Source of the DNA: Burkholderiales bacterium
GTDB lineage: Bacteria > Pseudomonadota > Gammaproteobacteria > Burkholderiales > SG8-39
Assembly (NCBI GenBank): GCA_035280965.1
Contig: DATEEW010000327.1
Location: 1-32,053 of the forward strand
Direction: 5' to 3'
DNA: 32,053 nucleotides
The notes under the pieces are model-generated. The model had not been told where the DNA came from. It did not search any database and saw only the letters and a program-made list of their open reading frames with translations. The translations under genes and the position numbers were made by a program. This document shows, in pieces, positions 6,035-23,160 of this stretch (within the stretch, counting starts at the first letter, position 1; each line of letters starts with the position of its first letter).

Positions 6035-6226
6035 CTCAAGCGCCGCCATTTTCTGGTGTCGCCTCCGATTCCCGGAGTTTCGCGACCCACATTTCTTTAA
6101 CTGAATATTTCAGGCGTGCCCCAGGCTGGGGCGCAAAAACGGGTAATGCACCGTCATTTGGCGGGCGAGCGGATGCGTCTGCACCGAAAGTGCTTTATTT
6201 CGTTCAATACGTTGCATAAATGTGCG

Positions 6227-6242
6227 TGGCATAGGCCTTGCT
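6227..6242 (+). promoter_or_regulatory. second sigma-54-type -24/-12 core, immediately upstream of cobA
   Basis: TGGCATaggccTTGCT. GG at 6228-6229 and GC at 6240-6241 with 10-nt spacing. The 22-nt block 6222-6243 is 21/22 identical to 2215-2236. It is only 14 nt from the -12 C to ATG 6256, which makes function uncertain. Confidence 0.45.
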
Positions 6243-6255
6243 CAAGATCAGCCTC

Positions 6256-7033: not shown

Positions 7034-9466
7034 ATGAAGCGCATGAAATTGGTAATGGTCGGCAACGGCATGGCCGGCGTTCGGACACTCGAAGAAGTGC
7101 TAAAGCTGTCTCCCGATCTCTACGACATCACGGTGTTCGGCGCCGAGCCGCATCCCAATTACAACCGTATTCTGTTGTCGCCGGTCCTTGCGGGGGAAAT
7201 GACCATCAAGGACATCATGCTGAATGACCTTGACTGGTATAGCGACAACAATATCAAGCTGCATCTGAACAAGAAGGTCGTGAAAATCGACCGTCGCGCT
7301 CGCAAAGTCTTCGCCGAAGACGGTACCGAAGAAGAATACGACCGCCTGCTGTTGGCCACCGGGTCGAACCCATTCATGCTGCCGATTCCGGGCAAGGATC
7401 TGCAGGGCGTACTGAGCTACCGGGACATTCAAGACACCGACGCCATGATCGAGGCGTCCAAGCATTATAAGCATGCGGTTGTGATCGGTGGCGGCCTGCT
7501 CGGTCTTGAAGCGGCGAACGGTCTGAAACTCCGCGGCATGAACGTCACGGTCGTGCATCTGATGGACTGGCTGATGGAACGTCAGTTGGACAAGACCGCG
7601 GCGGACATGTTGCAGAAGTCTTTGGAACAGAAAGGCCTGCACTTCCTTCTCAAGACTCAAACCTCCGAAATACTCGGCAACGGAGGCCGCGTCAAAGGGG
7701 TGAAATTCAAGGACGGCAGCGAAATTACGGCCGATCTGGTCGTCATGGCCATCGGTATCCGGCCGAACACTGCGCTCGCGGAGTCGGCAGGCTTGTATTG
7801 CAACCGCGGCATCGTGGTGAATGACACCATGCAAAGTTACGATCCGCGCATTTACGCCGTGGGCGAATGCGTCGCGCATCGCGGGATCAGCTACGGTCTG
7901 GTCGCGCCGCTTTTCGAAATGGGCAAGGTTTGCGCAAACCACCTCGCCATGTTCGGTATTGGCCGTTACACGGGTTCGGTCACATCCACCAAACTAAAGG
8001 TCACCGGCATCGATCTTTTCTCAGCCGGTGATTTCGCGCCTGCAGAAGACCGCGAGGAAATCGTGCTACACGACGCCGTAGGCGGCGTGTACAAGCGCCT
8101 TGTCGTAAAGGACAACAAAATCCTGGGCGGCGTGCTGTATGGCGACACCGCCGACGGCGCCTGGTATTTCCAGATGCTGCGCGACGGGCAGAACATTGCC
8201 GAAATTCGCGACCATCTGCTTTTCGGCCAGACGCATCTGGGCAACACTGGCCACCAGGGGCAGAGCAATGCCGCGCAAATGCCCGACACAATGGAGGTCT
8301 GCGGTTGCAATGGCGTATGCAAGGGGACAATCACCAAGACCATCAAGGAAAAAGGCCTATTCAGTCTGGAAGAAGTACGCAAACACACCAAAGCTTCCTC
8401 CTCCTGCGGTTCCTGCACGGGTTTGGTTGAACAAATTCTCGCCTCGACCGTGGGTGGAGCCTATCAAGCTGCGGATTCAAATACCAAGCCGATGTGCGGC
8501 TGTACCGATCACACGCATGAAGAGGTGCGTAAAGCCATTCGCGAACAGAAGCTGTTGTCCGTTCCGCAGGCGATGCAATCTCTGGCCTGGCATACGCCCA
8601 ACGGCTGCGCGAGCTGTCGCCCGGCGCTCAATTACTATTTGATTTCCACGTGGCCGAAAGAAGCGCAGGACGATCCGCAATCGCGTTTCATCAACGAACG
8701 CGCGCATGCCAACATCCAGAAGGACGGCACCTTCAGTGTGGTGCCGCGCATGTGGGGAGGTATCACCAATTCCTCCGAGTTGCGCCGCATTGCCGACGTG
8801 GCGGACAAATACAACATTCCGATGGTCAAGGTCACGGGCGGTCAACGCATCGATCTGCTCGGTGTGAAGAAAGAAGACTTGCCGGGCGTCTGGAAAGATC
8901 TGGACATGCCCTCAGGCCACGCCTATGGCAAAAGCATTCGCACCGTGAAGACCTGCGTGGGTTCAGAGTTCTGCCGCTTCGGCACGCAGAACTCGACGCA
9001 GATGGGTATCGATCTGGAAAAGATGTTGTTCGATATGTATTCGCCACACAAAGTGAAGCTTGCCGTATCCGGTTGTCCGCGTAACTGTGCGGAGTCTGGC
9101 ATCAAGGACGTCGGCGTGATTGGCGTCGATTCAGGTTGGGAGATCTATGTCGGCGGCAACGGCGGTATCAAAACCGAAGTCGCGCAATTCCTTTGCAAGG
9201 TTGCCACGCACGACGAAGTGCTGGAATATTCCGGCGCCTTCCTGCAGCTGTATCGCGAGGAAGCGCGCTATCTGGATCGTACGGTGCACTGGATCGGTCG
9301 CGTCGGTATGGAATATGTGAAGAAACACGTGGTCGAGGACGCGGCAAATCGCAAGGCCCTGCATGAACGCCTGCTCTTCGCACTTTCCGGTGGAAAGGAT
9401 CCCTGGAAAGAGCGTATCGAGAAGAACGAAAAAACCCGCGAATTCGAATCCATTGAGATCGCGTAA
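7034..9466 (+). CDS. nirB: NAD(P)H-dependent assimilatory nitrite reductase large subunit
   Basis: Rossmann folds 'KLVMVGNGMAGV' and 'AVVIGGGLLGLEAA'. BFD-like 2Fe-2S 'CGCNGVCKG...SSCGSCTG'. Siroheme/4Fe-4S 'TCVGSEFCRFG' and 'SGCPRNCAE'. AGGAG at 7021-7025 lies 8 nt before ATG 7034. The ORF-track start at 6974 would overlap cobA and lacks an RBS. Confidence 0.96.
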   Translation: MKRMKLVMVGNGMAGVRTLEEVLKLSPDLYDITVFGAEPHPNYNRILLSPVLAGEMTIKDIMLNDLDWYSDNNIKLHLNKKVVKIDRRARKVFAEDGTEEEYDRLLLATGSNPFMLPIPGKDLQGVLSYRDIQDTDAMIEASKHYKHAVVIGGGLLGLEAANGLKLRGMNVTVVHLMDWLMERQLDKTAADMLQKSLEQKGLHFLLKTQTSEILGNGGRVKGVKFKDGSEITADLVVMAIGIRPNTALAESAGLYCNRGIVVNDTMQSYDPRIYAVGECVAHRGISYGLVAPLFEMGKVCANHLAMFGIGRYTGSVTSTKLKVTGIDLFSAGDFAPAEDREEIVLHDAVGGVYKRLVVKDNKILGGVLYGDTADGAWYFQMLRDGQNIAEIRDHLLFGQTHLGNTGHQGQSNAAQMPDTMEVCGCNGVCKGTITKTIKEKGLFSLEEVRKHTKASSSCGSCTGLVEQILASTVGGAYQAADSNTKPMCGCTDHTHEEVRKAIREQKLLSVPQAMQSLAWHTPNGCASCRPALNYYLISTWPKEAQDDPQSRFINERAHANIQKDGTFSVVPRMWGGITNSSELRRIADVADKYNIPMVKVTGGQRIDLLGVKKEDLPGVWKDLDMPSGHAYGKSIRTVKTCVGSEFCRFGTQNSTQMGIDLEKMLFDMYSPHKVKLAVSGCPRNCAESGIKDVGVIGVDSGWEIYVGGNGGIKTEVAQFLCKVATHDEVLEYSGAFLQLYREEARYLDRTVHWIGRVGMEYVKKHVVEDAANRKALHERLLFALSGGKDPWKERIEKNEKTREFESIEIA

Positions 9467-9517
9467 ATGTTGGCCAAAACAGAGATGCCCTCAGGGCACG
9501 ACAGCGAGGAAGCAGTG

Positions 9518-9829
9518 ATGGATGGCTGGAAGAAGGTTTGTCGCATCGAGGACATCCCACCTCTAGGTGCGCGCGTTGTAAAGCGGGCGGGCGGAGTCAA
9601 TATCGCCGTGTTCCGCAACGCTGAAGATCATATCTTCGCGCTCGACGACAAGTGTCCGCATAAAGGGGGCCCCTTGTCGCAAGGCATCGTTCACGGCGAC
9701 CAGGTGACTTGCCCACTGCACGCTTGGAAGATCTGTATGAGCGACGGTAACGCTGTTGCGCCTGACGTTGGCTGCACCAAGCGCTATGCGGTGAAGCTCG
9801 ACGGCGCTGACATATTCCTTCAAATCTAA
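9518..9829 (+). CDS. nirD: nitrite reductase small subunit, Rieske-type
   Basis: 'WKKVCRIEDIPPLGARVV...IAVFRN..DHIFALDDKCPHKGGPL...VTCPLHAWK' matches NirD/NasG. The CxH-X16-CxxH Rieske ligand pattern is retained. I prefer ATG 9518 (GAGGA upstream) over the ORF-track start at 9467. Confidence 0.88.
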   Translation: MDGWKKVCRIEDIPPLGARVVKRAGGVNIAVFRNAEDHIFALDDKCPHKGGPLSQGIVHGDQVTCPLHAWKICMSDGNAVAPDVGCTKRYAVKLDGADIFLQI

Positions 9830-9837
9830 AAAGCCGG

Positions 9838-9907
9838 CGTCATGCCCGTGTCAACGGGCGTCCTGTGTATGGATTCCCGCCCTCTTTTCCACTTGGGGGG
9901 AATGACG
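9838..9907 (-). repeat. REP/MITE-like double-hairpin element, copy 1 (inverted relative to copy 2)
   Basis: cgtcatGCCCGTgtcaACGGGCgtcctgtgtatggATTCCCgcc...ggGGGAATgacg. Terminal CGTCAT/ATGACG inverted ends with two internal hairpins. Its reverse complement aligns with 11212-11286. Confidence 0.75.
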
Positions 9908-9929
9908 ATGCGCGAATCGGAGATCCATC

Positions 9930-11141
9930 TTGAAATCATCCTTCTTTAAAGCCGGTCATTTTCCGACCTTGTTCGCGGCCTTTTTCTATTTCGATCTGAG
10001 CTTCATGGTCTGGGTGATGTTGGGCCCGTTGGCCGTGCAAATCGCCAGCGACCTGGGCTTGAATGCCGCGCAAAAAGGCATGATGGTCGCAACGCCGGTC
10101 CTGGCCGGCGCGTTGCTGCGCATCGTGATGGGTGTGCTGGTCGATCATTTGAAACCCAAACGCGCAGGCTTGATCGGCCAATTGATCGTATTGGTCGGAT
10201 TGGGTGCTGCGTATTTATTCGTCATCGATAGCTACGGGCAAATTCTCGCACTCGGACTGGTGCTCGGAGTTGCCGGCGCTTCGTTTGCGGTTGCCTTGCC
10301 TCTGGCGTCCCGCTGGTACCCCCCCGAACATCAGGGTACTGCTCTGGGCATTGCCGGCGCGGGCAATTCCGGTACTGTATTTGCAGCGCTCTTCGGCCCC
10401 ACGCTTGCCTTGTGGTTCGGTTGGAACAACGTCTTCGGGCTGGCGATGATTCCTTTATTCGTCGCCTTGGTCGTGTATGTCCTAATGGCGAAAGATCCAC
10501 CGGATGCGCCAGCGCCAAAATCGCTGGCGAGTTATTTATCGGTCCTGCGTGATCGCGACGCTTGGTGGTTCATGTTTTTCTACAGCGTGACTTTCGGTGG
10601 TTTTGTGGGTCTCGCTTCTTCTTTGACTATCTATTTCAACGATCAATACGGTCTCAGTCCGGTGATCGCCGGTTACTTCACCGCAGCGTGCGTTTTTTCC
10701 GGTTCAATGATTCGCCCGTTCGGCGGTCTGCTTGCTGATCGCATCGGCGGTATTCGTTCCTTGTCTTTGATGTACGTCATCGCTGCTGCTCTGATTTTGA
10801 TCGTGAGTACTGGACCTGCAAATTCGTATGTTGCACTGGGCATATTCATGCTGGCCATGCTCGCGCTTGGAATGGGCAATGGCGCCGTGTTTCAACTGGT
10901 TCCTCAGCGCTTCCGCAAGGAAATCGGCGTGATGACGGGCCTGGTCGGTATGGCAGGCGGCGTAGGCGGCTTCTATTTGGCCTCAAGCCTCGGTTACTCC
11001 AAACAATTCACCGGCAATTACAAGGTAGGGCTGCTTGTCTTCGCGGCACTTGCGATCGTGGCAATGCTAGGTTTGACTTCGGTGAAAACGCGCTGGCGCA
11101 CGACTTGGGGCGCGGCGCATCTTACCTCTGCGAAACTGTGA
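9930..11141 (+). CDS. narK: MFS nitrate/nitrite transporter (NarK/NasA family)
   Basis: 403 aa with about 12 TM segments. The N-terminus 'FFKAGHFPTLFAAFFYFDLSFMVWVMLGPLAVQIA' is typical of NNP-family assimilatory nitrate transporters. TTG start at 9930 with GGAGA at 9919-9923. Confidence 0.92.
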   Translation: MKSSFFKAGHFPTLFAAFFYFDLSFMVWVMLGPLAVQIASDLGLNAAQKGMMVATPVLAGALLRIVMGVLVDHLKPKRAGLIGQLIVLVGLGAAYLFVIDSYGQILALGLVLGVAGASFAVALPLASRWYPPEHQGTALGIAGAGNSGTVFAALFGPTLALWFGWNNVFGLAMIPLFVALVVYVLMAKDPPDAPAPKSLASYLSVLRDRDAWWFMFFYSVTFGGFVGLASSLTIYFNDQYGLSPVIAGYFTAACVFSGSMIRPFGGLLADRIGGIRSLSLMYVIAAALILIVSTGPANSYVALGIFMLAMLALGMGNGAVFQLVPQRFRKEIGVMTGLVGMAGGVGGFYLASSLGYSKQFTGNYKVGLLVFAALAIVAMLGLTSVKTRWRTTWGAAHLTSAKL

Positions 11142-11321: not shown

Positions 11322-12998
11322 ATGTCCCTGCAAATTTCCATCGGCCACCTCAGTGCGGTGGGGCCGCGCGAGCGCAATGAAGATTTTTGCGGCTTCGTGA
11401 CGCCCACTGCGAGCGCGCTTGCAACCAAGGGCGTGCTTCTCGCGCTCGCCGATGGCGTATCGATGAGCCGAGGCGGTCGTGAAGCCGCCGAATTTTCTGT
11501 GCGCGGTGTGCTAAGCGATTATTACGCGACGCCGGAGACTTGGTCGGTACCCCATGCGCTAGACCGCGTCATTCAGTCCATCAATCGCTGGGTCATTGGG
11601 CAAAGTCGCTCCGAGCGCGAAAGCGGAGGTGCAACCACTCTCTCGACCTTAGTCCTCCGCGGCAGGCGTTGGTATGTCGCGCACGTAGGCGACAGCCGCA
11701 TTTATCTGATACGCGACGGCAAGTTGCGGCGACTTACCGTCGATCATGTTTGGGATCGTCCGGAAATGCAGCATGTGCTGACGCGCGCCATCGGACTGGA
11801 CGCGCGTCTGTTGCTTGATCACAGCGATGAAAGCATCAAAGAAGGCGATTGTTTCGTCCTCGCCACCGATGGCGTTTGGGAACCCTTAGGCGATCGCGAA
11901 TTGCATCGCATCGTAGGCGAATCCGATGCGCCGCAAGCGGCCGCCGAGGCGCTGGTGCGAGAAGCGCTCGAACGGGAAGGGCGCGATAACGCGACTGCGA
12001 TGGTGTTGCGCGTGGACCGACTGCCCGAAGAATTGCTGCGCGATGCGCTGGCGGATAGCGATCAATTTGCCGTGCCGCCGCGTTTGAAAGCGGGAGAGGT
12101 GCTTGACGGTTTCAGCATCGTCGAAGTGCTGCATGAATCCCGTGCCACCATCGTTTACAAAGCCAGCGATAGCGATGGCGCTTTTGTTGTGCTCAAAACA
12201 TTACCGCCTGCGCTCGCGCAAGATAAAGAACAACGTTCGGCGCTGATGGCGGAAGAATGGCTGGCGCGGCGCCTGGTCTCGCTTTATTTTCCCGAGGCGC
12301 TGCCCCTGGAAGGGCGACGCACGGCGCTGTATTACGCGATGACCTTCCACGAAGGTGCGAGCCTGCAGCAGCATCTCGATGCGGGCCGCCACTTTCCTAT
12401 CGTGGAAGTGGTGAGCTTGGGCGTGCGTTTGATGAAAGCGTTGGGCGCCTTGCATCGTCGCGATGTTTTGCATCGCGATATCAAACCGGCCAATTTGCAT
12501 TTGGGCGGTGACGGCCGTCTGCGTATTCTCGATTTCGGCGTGGCGCGCAGCGCAGTCGGCGAAGACGAAAGCGCGATTCCGGGCACGCCAAGCTATATGG
12601 CACCAGAGTTGATCGGCGGCGATGCCCCACACGTACAAAGCGATCTCTATGCGGCCGGCGTTACGCTTTATCACTTGCTGACGCGCAAATACCCCTATGG
12701 CGAAATCGAACCCTTTCAGCATCCGCGCTTCGGAGAACCCACGCCGCCCTCCCGCTACCGGCCGGACGTGCCTTATTGGCTCGAAGCGATACTGCTCAAG
12801 GCAGTCGCCCGTGAGCGCAAGCTGCGTTTCGAAACTGCAGAAGAATTTTTGCTGGCGTTGGAGCGCGGAGAAAACCAAACGACTACCGCACCGCCTCGAA
12901 CACCGATTGCGCGCGATCCACTGCGTTTGTGGAAGTCCATCGCTACCGCGGCCATCATCTTGAATCTGCTGTTGCTTTATTTACTGGCAGTTCGTTAG
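11322..12998 (+). CDS. bifunctional PP2C-type Ser/Thr phosphatase / Hanks-type Ser/Thr protein kinase, C-terminally membrane-anchored
   Basis: PP2C motifs 'RERNEDF', 'ALADGVS', 'VAHVGDSRIY', 'LATDGVWE', 'DNATAMVL'. Kinase motifs 'FVVLK', 'HRDIKPANL', 'DFGVAR', 'GTPSYMAPE'. C-terminal TM segment 'IATAAIILNLLLLYLLAV'. Confidence 0.9.
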   Translation: MSLQISIGHLSAVGPRERNEDFCGFVTPTASALATKGVLLALADGVSMSRGGREAAEFSVRGVLSDYYATPETWSVPHALDRVIQSINRWVIGQSRSERESGGATTLSTLVLRGRRWYVAHVGDSRIYLIRDGKLRRLTVDHVWDRPEMQHVLTRAIGLDARLLLDHSDESIKEGDCFVLATDGVWEPLGDRELHRIVGESDAPQAAAEALVREALEREGRDNATAMVLRVDRLPEELLRDALADSDQFAVPPRLKAGEVLDGFSIVEVLHESRATIVYKASDSDGAFVVLKTLPPALAQDKEQRSALMAEEWLARRLVSLYFPEALPLEGRRTALYYAMTFHEGASLQQHLDAGRHFPIVEVVSLGVRLMKALGALHRRDVLHRDIKPANLHLGGDGRLRILDFGVARSAVGEDESAIPGTPSYMAPELIGGDAPHVQSDLYAAGVTLYHLLTRKYPYGEIEPFQHPRFGEPTPPSRYRPDVPYWLEAILLKAVARERKLRFETAEEFLLALERGENQTTTAPPRTPIARDPLRLWKSIATAAIILNLLLLYLLAVR

Positions 12999-17688: not shown

Positions 17689-18054
17689 ATGGCGAAGTAC
17701 GGCAAAAAGGCATCGGAAAAAGTCGAGAAGTCGATGCACGAAATGAAAGAAGGCAAGCTTAAGAGCGGCGGCTCCGGCAAGAACGTGACCAGCCGCAAGC
17801 AGGCAATTGCGATCGGTTTATCCGAAGCACGCAAAGAGGGCGGCAAGGTCCCGGCGAAGAAAAAAACCGCGAAGAAGACTGCAGCGAAAAAGAAGACGGC
17901 GAAGAAGGCGCCGAGCAGAAAAACCGCGAGCAAGAAAACAACCGCGAAGAAGGCGCCAAGAAGAAAGGCCGCCGCCAAAAAAAATACTGTCAGAAAAACG
18001 GCTGCTAAGAAATCGACCGCCAAGAAAAGTGTCTCGCGGAAGAAACGCGCATAG
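17689..18054 (+). CDS. Lys/Ala-rich histone-H1-like (AlgP/BpH-type tail) small basic protein
   Basis: 121 aa. N-terminal ~55 aa 'EKSMHEMKEGKLKSGGSGKNVTSRKQAIAIGLSEARKEG' is followed by ~65 aa of (T/A)AKK-type repeats. AGGAG at 17678-17682 lies 6 nt before the ATG. The antisense ORF 17613-18071 is a repeat shadow. Confidence 0.6.
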   Translation: MAKYGKKASEKVEKSMHEMKEGKLKSGGSGKNVTSRKQAIAIGLSEARKEGGKVPAKKKTAKKTAAKKKTAKKAPSRKTASKKTTAKKAPRRKAAAKKNTVRKTAAKKSTAKKSVSRKKRA

Positions 18055-18280
18055 AGTTGTTGCAATCGCACATATTATTTGGGGGCATGGTCGCCGCAAT
18101 ACGCACACGATGGTATTCGTATGCGACACAGCATAGTGATTCGCCTTCATTTCCGACGTCCGGACTTGCGCTGGACAATCGACGATGAAATTCACACAAA
18201 AGGATTAAGCCATCGTCATGCTTCTATGTCTGGAAAGCTTGATCTAAGCTGTATGCGTATTGAATAAGTAGGAGCGCGGC

Positions 18281-19969
18281 ATGCGGCATCATTCCTCGGT
18301 TCAAGGCGGCGCGAAGCAGTCTTCGCGCAACACTCAATACCGTTCCGACGGAAACAGAATGCGCGATTGGCGCGCCCGCAAGGAGGGCGATCCCTTGCCT
18401 GCAGGATTGCGTGCTTCCTTGGAGCAATACTTCAAATCGCCGCTGGACCGAGTGCGCATGCATAGCGATCCGGCCAGTCAGCGTGAGGCGGATCGGCTCA
18501 AGGCCGGAGCTTTCACTCTGGGTCAGAACATTCATCTTGGCAGCGAAGCCTTGCGCGCGGGGAGCAAAGCCAGATCTGCGCTGCTCGCGCATGAAGTCGT
18601 GCATACGATTCAACAAGGTGCCGTTTCAGATCGTATCCATCCCACAGTAGGTCCTCAAGACGATCCATACGAACAACAGGCCGAAGCGCTTGCCAAGGGC
18701 TTCTCGCGATACGAACGGAATCCGCACGACCGCCTCGCGCTAGGCATGCGCGATGTGGCGAACGTGCAGAAAACGCCGGGTGGCCGAGCCACGATCCAAT
18801 GCGGCAAAGTTCCCACTCATTTTGGTGAGTTCGAGGATTTCAAATACAAGGATTTAACCAATGCCGCCGGTAAGAAAGTCGGCGTCGAAATGTATTTGAA
18901 ATTCCATCCGGGTACGAATGTAAGTGCCGACCTTATCGGCTTGACGCAGGTTGCCGAAGGGAAACGGAATGGCGTCCCAATCACACAAGGTTTGTACGGG
19001 TTGCACAGTGCAACGAGCGGCGCGGGCGTAGGATACTTTATCGATCGGTTGGAAGGATTTCCAAACCCGATATACCCAACGACAAAAAAAGTCGTTTCCG
19101 GCGGCAGTGCGAGCAACCTCGCCGATTATGAGACGACAAGCATTACCGCGTTGACCGCGACGGAGCAAGCAACCAGGGCCGCCTCGACTGGTATTACAGG
19201 CGTCGGTTACAAAGGCTGGGGCCAGCACGGCTTCAGTAAAGTCGTCAGCGGGAAAACGGTGACGCAGGATGCCGAACTCTATGACGCGCCGGTGCTAGGT
19301 GGGGCGGGCGCCGACTCGGAACAGGTTTTCGAAACGACCGCGCTCGCACTTTCGGGCTCGCAGAAGGATACCTACTACGGTTCTGTAGAGTGGGGATGGC
19401 GTATCGACTCCAAAGGCGCATTCACGCGCATTCCTCTCAAAGCGGTTTCGCAAGGAGTGCCTAGCGCAACCTTCCTCACTGCAGCGAATATATGGAATCC
19501 ATCGAAAGTCTCTTTAGGTTTTAAAAGCACGATTGCGACCGATTTGCTCGATGGTACCCTCACGAAAATTGGCTCTATTCCAAAAGACGCAGAGCTTGAA
19601 TTCACTGGTCGCAGCGGTACGGTTGGCTCCAAAACGTACGTGGAAGTGAAGCATTCCGGAACTACAGGAGTTGTAGATAATGCTGCCGTACAACAGGCCG
19701 CGATTGGAGCGGCTACCGTCGACTTGCCTGTACCGATGGTTCAGACGATTTCCAATCCATTGGGCAGTACGATGATTTTGAAATACGCATTGGGTTCGAG
19801 CACAGTGCAGCTTCCGTGGGGTACCCGCGTCGTTACGACGGCCTCAATGCTGCCAACGCCGACGCTTCCCAATCACGAGGAAGGCGAAGTGGCGGACGGC
19901 CCCTTGACGGGCACGAAAGGCTATTTCTTCGCGCCCGATCTCAAGCTAGAAGCGCTCGGGAAACGTTGA
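18281..19969 (+). CDS. DUF4157 (zincin-like HExxH) N-terminal domain protein with a ~440-aa uncharacterised C-terminal body
   Basis: Residues ~38-115, 'LPAGLRASLEQYF...DRVRMHSD..S...A..LKAGAFTLGQNIHLGSE...SALLAHEVVHTIQQG', match the DUF4157 signature as I know it. HEVVH is encoded at 18590-18604. AGGAG at 18270-18274 lies 6 nt before the ATG. No signal peptide is visible. I recognise no motif in the remainder. Confidence 0.7.
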   Translation: MRHHSSVQGGAKQSSRNTQYRSDGNRMRDWRARKEGDPLPAGLRASLEQYFKSPLDRVRMHSDPASQREADRLKAGAFTLGQNIHLGSEALRAGSKARSALLAHEVVHTIQQGAVSDRIHPTVGPQDDPYEQQAEALAKGFSRYERNPHDRLALGMRDVANVQKTPGGRATIQCGKVPTHFGEFEDFKYKDLTNAAGKKVGVEMYLKFHPGTNVSADLIGLTQVAEGKRNGVPITQGLYGLHSATSGAGVGYFIDRLEGFPNPIYPTTKKVVSGGSASNLADYETTSITALTATEQATRAASTGITGVGYKGWGQHGFSKVVSGKTVTQDAELYDAPVLGGAGADSEQVFETTALALSGSQKDTYYGSVEWGWRIDSKGAFTRIPLKAVSQGVPSATFLTAANIWNPSKVSLGFKSTIATDLLDGTLTKIGSIPKDAELEFTGRSGTVGSKTYVEVKHSGTTGVVDNAAVQQAAIGAATVDLPVPMVQTISNPLGSTMILKYALGSSTVQLPWGTRVVTTASMLPTPTLPNHEEGEVADGPLTGTKGYFFAPDLKLEALGKR

Positions 19970-19973
19970 ATCG

Positions 19974-20558
19974 ATGAGCAAGGCTGCGGAGCGCGTGAAG
20001 CAGCATTTGCTCGAAGCGGGTTACGCGCGCTTATTTATCGAACGTGTCCAAGCCGCTATCGATCAGGTGCGCGCAGGTGAATCGGATATAGGCTCGCTTT
20101 TGCAAGAAGTGGCGAATGACCGCGAGACGTCCTGGGATGCACGGTTTCTGGCCTCGGAATATTTGTATCGCTACATCGACATGAAGTTGCATGCCGAGCT
20201 GGATCGTGATGAATTGCAGGAAAGCTATTTTGAAGCCCTGCGTCACAATGCAAGCGGAAATGGCGCTGATTGGGCCTTCGCCACGGGTCCCAATGAATTA
20301 GGGCCACTATTGCGCATGGTGCTCGATGGCGATAGCCAGCTCAATGCTTTCCTGGCGGGTTTGGAGGACGACACGGAACTTCCGTTGTATTTCCCGTGGC
20401 GTGCACCGGCGCATTTCGAGCCACCTTACCGGGTGAAGGATTTCGCCGCTCTGGCGATTTCCCGAGTCCGAGGTCTGGGCGTCGATCTTTCGGGCCCTGT
20501 CGATCGTCGCGATGAAGCGATCGAATCGCTTCGGAAGCGTTTGGCGGAGGCGAATTAA
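19974..20558 (+). CDS. hypothetical cytoplasmic protein, helical-looking, coupled to the DUF4157 gene
   Basis: 194 aa. The ATG lies 4 nt after the upstream stop (TGA 19967-19969). No TM segment or signal peptide. Rich in E/D/L/A/R. No family motif recognised. Confidence 0.55.
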   Translation: MSKAAERVKQHLLEAGYARLFIERVQAAIDQVRAGESDIGSLLQEVANDRETSWDARFLASEYLYRYIDMKLHAELDRDELQESYFEALRHNASGNGADWAFATGPNELGPLLRMVLDGDSQLNAFLAGLEDDTELPLYFPWRAPAHFEPPYRVKDFAALAISRVRGLGVDLSGPVDRRDEAIESLRKRLAEAN

Positions 20559-20569
20559 GGAATGTTTCA

Positions 20570-20716
20570 TTAAGGGCTGCCGCCCCTTAAAATTGCCTCC
20601 GGCATAACGCCGCTTACAGCGGCATTAGCCTACGCCGCAATCTTCGGGACAGGCGCAGATTGTCCCCGCAAATTCAGGCAAGCTCTGATTTCAAAAACAA
20701 GTTAATCAGAGCTTTC
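20570..20716 (+). repeat. ~147-nt multi-hairpin intergenic repeat, copy A
   Basis: Fills the convergent gap between the 194-aa gene and msrB. Hairpins: TTAAGGGctgccgcCCCTTAA (20570-20590), GCCGCttacaGCGGC, GGGACAggcgcagatTGTCCC, AGCTCTGATTtcaaaaacaagttAATCAGAGCT (20681-20713). Aligns with the reverse complement of 23016-23160. Confidence 0.85.
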
Positions 20717-23015: not shown

Positions 23016-23160
23016 GGAAGCTTTGATTAAGTTTCTTCAGCAATCAGGGCTTCCCTGAATTTGTGGGGACATTCTGCGCCTGTCGCAGACTGCGGATAGG
23101 CTAACGCCGCTGTAAGCGGCGTTATGCTGGAAGCAATTTTAAACGTGGCGACCCCTTAAT
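23016..23160 (-). repeat. ~147-nt multi-hairpin intergenic repeat, copy B (inverted)
   Basis: Fills the convergent gap between the antiporter and the RRM-like gene. By hand alignment, the reverse complement matches copy A at about 89 of 102 positions in the central block (20589-20690), with three 1-nt gap positions. The terminal hairpins are also conserved. Confidence 0.85.

Follow-up and report, generated by a model that had tools for sequence, protein, structure and literature searches.

A DUF4157-headed protein and its downstream partner in a Burkholderiales contig: a candidate orphan effector-immunity pair related to contractile injection system cargo

We analyze a pair of adjacent genes, here called A and B, in a 32,053-nt stretch of DNA (hereafter, the window) from a Burkholderiales bacterium (assembly GCA_035280965.1, contig DATEEW010000327.1). 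Gene A (plus strand, 18281-19969) encodes a 562-aa multidomain protein that is headed by a DUF4157 domain and belongs to a large unannotated family, as delineated from its open reading frame (ORF), Pfam and a structural model. Gene B (plus strand, 19974-20558) encodes a 194-aa acidic protein of an unannotated partner family, which its ORF and synteny make a candidate cognate immunity-type protein. Only 4 nt separate the stop codon of A from the start of B, which suggests that the two are translationally coupled. [quoted passage not shown] The observations that carry this reading are the domain anatomy of A, the sizes of the two families, the synteny and co-divergence of A and B, the embedding of relatives in eCIS operons, and the lipoprotein signals found on many partners.

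eCIS cargo is recognized chiefly by its DUF4157 proteins, most of which have no annotated second domain that would hint at what they do. That there is a class of DUF4157-headed cargo with an adjacent neutralizer is established. New with respect to the libraries and literature we searched are the effector domain, the partner family, the distribution of that family over two compartments, and the mainly orphan deployment. The A family is a coherent sub-family (at least 1,217 clusters) with a confidently modelled unclassified domain, tails of the wall-binding type and a dedicated partner family. The pair is therefore of interest as a concrete effector-immunity candidate, with a possible new antibacterial activity and with cargo and neutralizer parts for engineered injection systems. 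In addition, partners come in a cytoplasmic and a lipoprotein form and orphan copies predominate, and both features are relevant to the site at which eCIS cargo acts in a bacterial target and to how the producer protects itself.

Domain architecture of gene A and its family

A first-pass annotation of this DNA, made from the letters alone, had given A a DUF4157 zincin-like head with the motif HEVVH at 18590-18604, and the profile search agrees: residues 38-113 (18392-18619) match Pfam PF13699 (eCIS_core) with E = 7.7e-22 and 77.7 bits, against a gathering cut-off of 22, and cover profile positions 1-76 of 79. The HExxH of A is this HEVVH, at residues 104-108, and H104, E105, H108 and Q111 are invariant across 72 homologues. 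Residues 1-37 (18281-18391), ahead of the domain, are polar and basic and are predicted from model and composition to be disordered. They contain nine Lys or Arg residues and have a grand average of hydropathy (GRAVY) of -2.0, and the model assigns residues 1-25 a predicted local distance difference test (pLDDT) score below 50. By analogy with the known eCIS cargo proteins Cgo1 and Cgo2, this segment is a candidate eCIS loading sequence. No signal peptide or transmembrane segment was found in A, where the maximum 19-aa hydropathy is 1.14; the absence of a signal peptide had been noted at first pass as well. The protein as a whole is basic, with an isoelectric point (pI) of 9.0.

Two short motifs accompany the domains. 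Residues 128-135 (DPYEQQAE, 18662-18685), placed by the model and a motif scan in helix 129-146, are a copy of D-x-[YFL]-E-[QRK]-[QE]-A-[DE], which occurs in 102 of 173 family proteins, 59 times in the interval separating DUF4157 from the body and 43 times on the N-terminal side of DUF4157. The start of the body domain is marked by a conserved [IV]-Q-R, with Q173 kept in at least 90% of sequences. These motifs may serve as a (third) zinc ligand, a processing site or a recognition motif.

Outside DUF4157, single-sequence and profile searches of Pfam, NCBIfam, PADLOC, PHROGs and PDB sequences matched nothing in A. An AlphaFold2 model built from a 72-sequence alignment (mean pLDDT 90.8) orders the protein into a disordered stretch (1-25), a helical zincin module (about 35-160), a beta-rich region (177-407) and two small beta-barrels. 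The body domain, a conserved beta-sandwich at residues 172-408 (18794-19504) that is delimited by a separate model and by its profile family, reaches a pLDDT of 94.8 and a predicted template modelling score (pTM) of 0.91 when modelled alone. In Foldseek comparisons, which were run against PDB and BFVD, the body has no significant PDB neighbor (best E = 0.034, template modelling (TM) score below 0.3, generic sandwiches), and Pfam, NCBIfam, PADLOC and PHROGs return no known toxin domain within it. Across 137 representatives, the invariant residues are F208, Q223, D255, P263, D335, E351, G359, W371 and G372, and the three carboxylates among them are compatible with catalysis or metal binding.

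The body nevertheless belongs to a populous family. A word-indexed search returned about 85 full-length relatives at 27-62% identity, of which the source-named ones are metagenome-assembled genomes (MAGs) of Pyrinomonadaceae, Thermoanaerobaculia, Rokuibacteriota and Piscinibacter. When the body alone served as the query of an exhaustive profile search, at least 1,217 cluster representatives were recovered at E <= 1e-3, including 475 at E <= 1e-30. The first-pass description of the body as unrecognizable thus stands with regard to domain and sequence libraries, and sequence, domain and fold searches likewise connect it to no known housekeeping family; the notion that it is an orphan gives way to a large conserved family. 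Of the 94 body-family representatives that were scanned, 68 contain DUF4157, and the only other domains present are LysM, SH3_3 (four), SH3_4 (one), CBM_20, one TPR and one KOW; none carries a known toxin domain or an Rhs, PAAR, VgrG or LXG module.

The C-terminal residues 409-562 (19505-19966) form two SH3-like beta-barrels (about 408-478 and 487-556) according to the model and Foldseek, and the two SH3-like repeats that the first-pass annotation had guessed at are recovered here as tandem SH3 and SH3b matches. This tail dominates the Foldseek matches of whole A, which consist only of SH3 and SH3b-type modules: the teichoic-acid-binding domain of SlpA, a Clostridium phage endolysin, NlpC/P60 proteins, LytB and eukaryotic tandem SH3 domains. 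Matches to 8alu, 4krt, 3h41, 7qfg and 4q2w have Foldseek probabilities of 0.89-1.00 (0.96-1.00 for tandem SH3b), single SH3 domains align at TM 0.65-0.73 normalized to the target, and further matches are to phage SH3 and endolysin models; the E-values are modest (1e-2 to 1e-3). Window A has no Pfam match to SH3_3 or SH3_4, the similarity being below detection at that level. On the strength of the modelled fold, the barrels most likely bind cell-wall polymers.

An enzymatic head joined to an SH3b-type tail, with no signal peptide and with phage endolysins among the tail matches, is the layout of an endolysin. One could accordingly imagine that A is a release factor that opens the wall of the producer so that eCIS particles escape, with B as its brake (an anti-lysin), and cell lysis does free eCIS particles (PMC8213781). 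We consider this very unlikely. A has no PHROG or lysin-family match and no holin-like gene next to it, most copies in the family are far from any eCIS, and the four-pair array and the lipoprotein partners described below would be unexpected for a lysis brake. Moreover, the characterized DUF4157 proteins Cgo1 and Cgo2 are lumen cargo and not lysis factors.

The partner family and its cellular compartments

The acidic 194-aa ORF that the first-pass annotation placed 4 nt after A is present as described (19974-20558, pI 4.86), and its product has neither a signal peptide nor a cysteine. B has no family match in Pfam (for which 43 diverse members were scanned), NCBIfam, PADLOC or PHROGs, and its best hit among PDB sequences has E = 0.26. 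A partner profile search yielded 89 clusters; all source-named ones are called “hypothetical protein,” none has a Pfam domain, and the family has no conserved Cys column.

The synteny of the pair was assessed in 171 collected loci, whose six-frame ORFs were searched with iterated local profiles. A generic DUF4157-motif scan of genome contigs gave four body-domain loci, the metagenome scan used a body-specific pattern, and the viral scan gave one locus. We regarded a locus as testable when the family gene had at least 500 nt of downstream sequence (87 genes). Immediately downstream and on the same strand, a homologue of B is present in 68 of these 87 cases (78%); it is elsewhere in the locus in one and missing in 18. 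Distant pairs keep the partner, as in loci L003 and L005, where it is 30% and 33% identical to B, respectively. Over 46 distinct pairs, the distances among A proteins and among B proteins are correlated (Mantel r = 0.585, a value reached by 0 of 2,000 permutations), and B evolves somewhat faster than A. Synteny in homologues, together with co-divergence, supports the first-pass idea of an immunity-type module insofar as the partner is conserved, and the roughly 20% of family genes that have no partner count against it.

The pair can also be amplified in tandem. In locus L009, from a Bacteroidetes MAG (PMXD01000020.1, 3-10365), four consecutive A-B pairs lie on one strand. Identity among the A copies is 72-82%, with its minimum in the first half of the body domain; among the B copies it is 58-87%. 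A partner-like fragment (9190-9528) is located between the fourth A and the fourth B.

Several loci show other variations. L002 (10001-11960) and L005 (10001-12582) have a common gene order of glutaminyl-tRNA synthetase, arginase, a 313-aa gene, A and a phosphodiesterase-family gene; the partner is present in L005 and cleanly absent in L002 (a 6.39-Mb genome), where A is intact and 63 nt from the next gene. In L001 (11936-12518), the closest long-contig relative, a frameshift splits the partner into two overlapping ORFs, and the C-terminus of P0122 diverges accordingly; the split reflects either loss of a functional gene (a pseudogene) or a mistake in the assembly. Large CHAT-domain (caspase-like) proteins, some with TPR, occur no more than 10 kb from the pair in four of seven distinct Pfam-annotated loci (L001 16055-19759, L002 19887-21896, L003 1-696 and L089 15125-19390), an association that a local profile neither confirmed nor refuted.

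The position of B had been called that of an immunity protein or a chaperone, and the predicted compartments of the two proteins help to separate these roles. We classed 86 partner clusters using gene starts from public sources. A canonical lipoprotein signal, with a basic n-region, a hydrophobic core and an L-[AV]-G-C lipobox, is found in 29 of them; five have other hydrophobic extensions, two have non-hydrophobic extensions, and 50, including window B, start at the conserved domain. In the ORF-based locus set, 16 of 59 partners carry a lipoprotein signal, one of them in the eCIS-linked locus L127, and all four L009 partners carry lipoprotein-type signals. Where the partner is a predicted lipoprotein, the N-terminus of the A protein is polar and has no signal, and no Sec, Tat or lipoprotein signal was seen on A in any lineage examined. 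With B a lipoprotein and A signal-less, the two would reside in different compartments of the producer and would not meet in the cytoplasm in those lineages. This separation rules out a loading-chaperone role there and matches an immunity protein that guards the periplasm. The signals predicted from these sequences thus favor B as an immunity protein rather than a loading chaperone.

A chaperone role is best considered in its general form, in which B assists A in the cytoplasm as a chaperone or adaptor, maintaining it in an unfolded or stable state and passing it to the AAA+ ATPase of an eCIS, with no part in immunity. The 50 of 86 partner clusters without an export signal, window B included, would share the cytoplasm with A, and A persists in the roughly 20% of loci that lack B. 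Speculation on chaperone-like functions associated with DUF4157 cargo has been published (PMC11297309), and many eCIS toxins have no immunity gene (PMC8213781). We nonetheless find this explanation distinctly unlikely, given that an exported B cannot chaperone a cytoplasmic A and that the partner clusters include 29 predicted lipoproteins and five with other hydrophobic extensions. The gene order also disagrees: T6SS (type VI secretion system) adaptor genes are typically upstream, unlike B, which is downstream of A. Tandem arrays that diversify in parallel, as those of A-B do, are typical for toxin-immunity cassettes, and the eCIS literature examined contains no cargo chaperone besides the Pvc15-type ATPase.

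eCIS contexts of the family and competing readings

The link between DUF4157 and eCIS, which the first-pass annotation had invoked, is directly visible in the A family. In eight loci (L088, L161, L127, L134, L108, L110, L087 and L089), family genes are found within eCIS operons or at their 3' ends. In L088, the family gene is flanked by a WHD-AAA ATPase gene and another DUF4157 gene, in a setting of sheath, tube, Pvc16_N, spike and gp25 genes. The markers in L161 are Pvc16_N, a WHD-AAA ATPase, spike and gp25, those in L127 are sheath and tube, and those in L134 are Pvc16_N and WHD-AAA; L108, L110 and L089 have one or two eCIS markers each, with the family gene of L089 following Baseplate_J. 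In L087, the family gene comes after a WHD-AAA ATPase gene and a DUF4157-Ntox4 gene, at the operon's 3' end. The contexts of L088, L087 and L089 come from Pfam-annotated neighborhoods. Local eCIS profiles were then built from L088 genes; a Pfam re-check upheld the assignments examined in L127, L161, L134 and L108, and in L110 it found the AAA domain only. Directly upstream of the L087 family gene (7514-9948), the DUF4157-Ntox4 fusion is followed by a 70-aa ORF, so that the operon contains a second and different DUF4157 toxin with a small downstream gene.

Such contexts are the minority, at about a quarter of the long loci. For a census, markers were sought within 10 kb in the 37 family loci that span 8 kb or more: three loci have at least two structural eCIS markers, six have one structural marker or an AAA ATPase with at most one structural marker, and 28 (76%) have no eCIS marker. 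When the two-marker test is applied to DUF4157 loci without the body domain, 30 of 76 are eCIS-linked. In the body-domain tree, eCIS-linked and orphan members are interspersed, and the clade of the window contains the eCIS-linked L087 at 52% body identity. The body sub-family is therefore genuinely eCIS-associated but mostly orphan.

The abundance of orphan copies raises the question of whether the pair works independently of any eCIS. In such a scenario, A would be a cell-wall metallopeptidase, with DUF4157 as the catalytic part and SH3b as the anchor, B would be its inhibitor or regulator, and the pair would serve remodelling of the producer's own envelope or be released by lysis. Besides the 76% of long loci and the window itself, none of which has eCIS genes nearby, this scenario can draw on the resemblance of the tails to wall-binding modules (SH3b-like, LysM, CBM_20), on the mycobacterial DUF4157 genes that adjoin the peptidoglycan endopeptidase gene ripC (PMC12067865), and on the occurrence of VgrG2b C-ter-like metallopeptidases in bacteria that rarely encode a T6SS (PMC6899460). 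However, a signal-less A cannot reach the wall of its own cell without a dedicated exporter or lysis, and members of the same clades hold the cargo position in eCIS operons. Tandem paralogue arrays would be unusual for housekeeping enzymes, and the neighborhoods are not conserved between lineages. On balance, we regard eCIS-independent action as unlikely. A reading of A-B as a defense system was also considered and rejected, as there is no PADLOC match and the contexts are those of eCIS.

Under the effector-immunity reading, A would be made in the cytoplasm without a Sec signal and would be exported by an eCIS encoded elsewhere in the genome, or else retained as a spare. Once exported, it would act on the envelope of a target bacterium, where its SH3b-like barrels would bind cell-wall polymers. 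B would bind and neutralize A, in the periplasm as a lipoprotein in roughly one third of lineages and in the cytoplasm in the lineage of the window. We infer in this way that window A is probably cargo, toxic and aimed at the envelope, and that its neutralization would occur by direct binding; the opposite charges of the two proteins (pI 9.0 for A versus 4.86 for B) count in favor of an effector and its immunity protein.

A number of observations weigh against this reading. The 32-kb window contains no eCIS gene, and since 28 of the 37 long loci have no eCIS marker within 10 kb, eCIS delivery of most members is putative. About 20% of family genes have no partner, and L002 keeps an intact A though B is absent, so that A is not obligately self-toxic, although an absence of self-toxicity is what would be expected of an envelope-acting protein that is trapped in the cytoplasm. 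In the window, B has no export signal while the tail of A suggests an envelope target, and the compartment argument drawn from lipoprotein partners is not directly transferable to it. Finally, the body resembles no known toxin or enzyme and could instead be a binding domain.

A more specific proposal, which we put forward as a doubtful one, is that the body (about 235 residues) is an envelope-acting antibacterial toxin domain with a new fold and that B represents a new immunity family deployed in two compartments. Were the two-compartment deployment true, it could mean that the target is reachable from both sides of the inner membrane, as a lipid-linked wall precursor would be. Alternatively, it could reflect two protective roles, one being self-protection before loading and the other protection against incoming cargo. 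As a corollary, most copies would be orphan modules that depend on a remote eCIS acting in trans or on some new route.

The genomic locus and comparison with known systems

The ORF limits, the 4-nt spacing and the left gap of exactly 226 nt are as first annotated. The non-coding leader of A (plus strand, 18055-18280) contains an AGGAG Shine-Dalgarno sequence at 18270-18274, 6 nt before the ATG, and no sigma-70 consensus promoter was found when it was scanned. On the other side, a 158-nt spacer (20559-20716) separates B from the convergent msrB gene and is predicted by folding to form four stable hairpins (dG -55.1 kcal/mol, z = -4.3); the multi-hairpin repeat that had been described at this boundary is thus retained as four hairpins and dropped as a direct repeat. 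The last of these hairpins (20680-20714), with the 11-bp stem AAGCTCTGATT...AATCAGAGCTT, has a second copy with two mismatches at 23018-23052, just past the Na/H-exchanger gene, and shuffled sequence gave 0 matches to it. It is probably a genome-wide terminator or an element akin to repetitive extragenic palindromes (REP-like) and not specific to the module.

The other genes scanned in the window are housekeeping genes by Pfam: chemotaxis proteins, assimilatory nitrate and nitrite reductase, a transporter, a PP2C-kinase, a GGDEF-EAL protein, an alcohol dehydrogenase, a cupin, a DUF6496/H1-like protein, MsrB, the Na/H exchanger, an AI-2E transporter, PPK2, a phosphoketolase, LOG and glycogen phosphorylase. 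None of the Pfam-scanned genes is an eCIS, T6SS or phage gene, in keeping with the earlier remark that the window has no eCIS, T6SS or other secretion genes. Around the islet, hallmarks of mobile elements were sought, and no tRNA, Rfam family or flanking direct repeats were found.

The islet had been called visibly AT-richer than its surroundings. The counts behind this statement (26 and 29 G+C in 19501-19560 and 19561-19620, versus 37 in 2401-2460) are exact, and the G+C content at third codon positions (GC3) of A and B (0.590 and 0.595) is the lowest of 24 genes, the others having a mean of 0.665 and a standard deviation of 0.036. The dip is modest, though: the G+C content of 18055-20716 is 54.9% versus 57.0% for the window, 3.6% of equal-sized windows are equally low, and both the whole-gene G+C and the codon-usage distance of A and B are inside the range of their neighbors. 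With GC3 about two standard deviations low and codon usage that is no outlier, horizontal transfer of the islet is a weak possibility.

The orphan location and the slightly atypical GC3, together with the frameshift that splits the L001 partner, might also suggest that the window pair is a decaying relic of a lost eCIS locus with no present function. This is highly improbable, as both window ORFs are intact and full-length and keep all the invariant residues of both families, the Shine-Dalgarno site and 4-nt coupling are preserved, and orphan pairs are conserved across several phyla.

Other features of the window lie outside the pair. Minus-strand ORFs over A and B (e.g., 18224-18616 and 20307-20570) were dismissed as non-coding shadows, the plus-strand genes having deep conserved families. 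The gene to the left of the leader (plus strand, 17689-18054) fuses a DUF6496 domain (E = 1.6e-21) to a Lys/Ala-rich tail resembling histone H1/HC2, which is encoded by imperfect 45-nt tandem repeats with an AT skew of up to 0.46. This gene and the leader that follows account for the lowest G+C near the islet (0.508 at 17701-18300). It appears to be outside the module, and no such gene is seen beside the pair in the Pfam-annotated loci. Farther away, a 22-nt direct repeat, GTGCGTGGCATAGGC(G/C)TTGCTC, occurs at 2215-2236 and 6222-6243 in copies that are 95% identical, just upstream of the nitrate reductase gene and of the tetrapyrrole methylase/nitrite reductase genes, and is a candidate shared regulatory site of the nitrate-assimilation cluster. 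At 11322-12998 (plus strand), a PP2C phosphatase domain at the N-terminus and a Ser/Thr protein kinase domain at the C-terminus are joined in one 558-aa ORF.

Among known systems, the closest in overall design are eCIS cargo proteins and eCIS-associated toxins (EATs). Cgo1 and Cgo2 of AlgoCIS are DUF4157 cargo in the eCIS tube lumen, and the C-terminal domain of Cgo1 is a predicted metalloprotease (PMC8894135); their loading requires the disordered N-terminus and not DUF4157 (bioRxiv 10.64898/2026.05.27.728243). Like these proteins and the EATs of Geller 2021 and Danov 2024, A has an N-terminus predicted to be disordered, a DUF4157 domain with HExxH and a C-terminal functional part, and its relatives are likewise in the cargo position, beside the Pvc15-type WHD-AAA ATPase and DUF4157 toxins such as DUF4157-Ntox4. 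A second domain has not been annotated in 983 of 1,130 predicted EATs (PMC11297309), and the beta-sandwich and SH3b-like tail of A are not described in the libraries or literature searched. The A family differs from EATs in having a dedicated partner family, whereas many EATs are without an immunity gene (PMC8213781). In addition, any possible eCIS gene would lie more than 11 kb away from the window copy. EATs are encoded within about 10 genes of an eCIS operon, whereas no Pfam-scanned gene of the window is an eCIS gene.

The Tpe-Tpi pairs (VgrG2b C-ter/PA0261 of P. aeruginosa and Tpe1-Tpi1 of A. baylyi) also consist of a DUF4157-annotated HExxH effector and a small gene immediately downstream. 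VgrG2b C-ter and Tpe1 are toxins that act in the periplasm, and their downstream immunity proteins reach the envelope in various ways, including by lipoprotein signals (PMC6899460). The DUF4157 protein BDI_2459 showed activity only when fused to a periplasmic translocation tag (PMC12210884). The Tpe effectors are delivered by T6SS, with the domain C-terminal on VgrG/PAAR or in a free cargo protein, whereas DUF4157 is N-terminal in A and the contexts are those of eCIS. A search of A against PDB sequences, VgrG2b C-ter included, returned only weak matches to BepA (M48) and unrelated proteins (E >= 0.1) at E-values up to 10. PA0261 has partly conserved cysteines that form needed disulfides, whereas window B has no Cys and most B homologues are cytoplasmic.

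Polymorphic toxin/immunity cassettes (Rhs, contact-dependent inhibition (CDI), LXG and T6SS pairs) resemble A-B in the same-strand downstream gene, the co-divergence and the tandem paralogous arrays, as well as in combining a conserved N-terminal delivery part with a more variable downstream region, which in L009 peaks in the body. Unlike the tips of these toxins, the body is not fused to Rhs, PAAR, VgrG or LXG in the 94 representatives and has no recognizable toxin fold. The lack of fusions to trafficking domains indicates that the body is not a freely swapped toxin tip. Lastly, the SH3b wall-binding modules of endolysins, NlpC/P60 proteins, LytB and SlpA provide the counterpart of the A tail, whose two barrels match their fold and whose relatives include the four family members with SH3_3.

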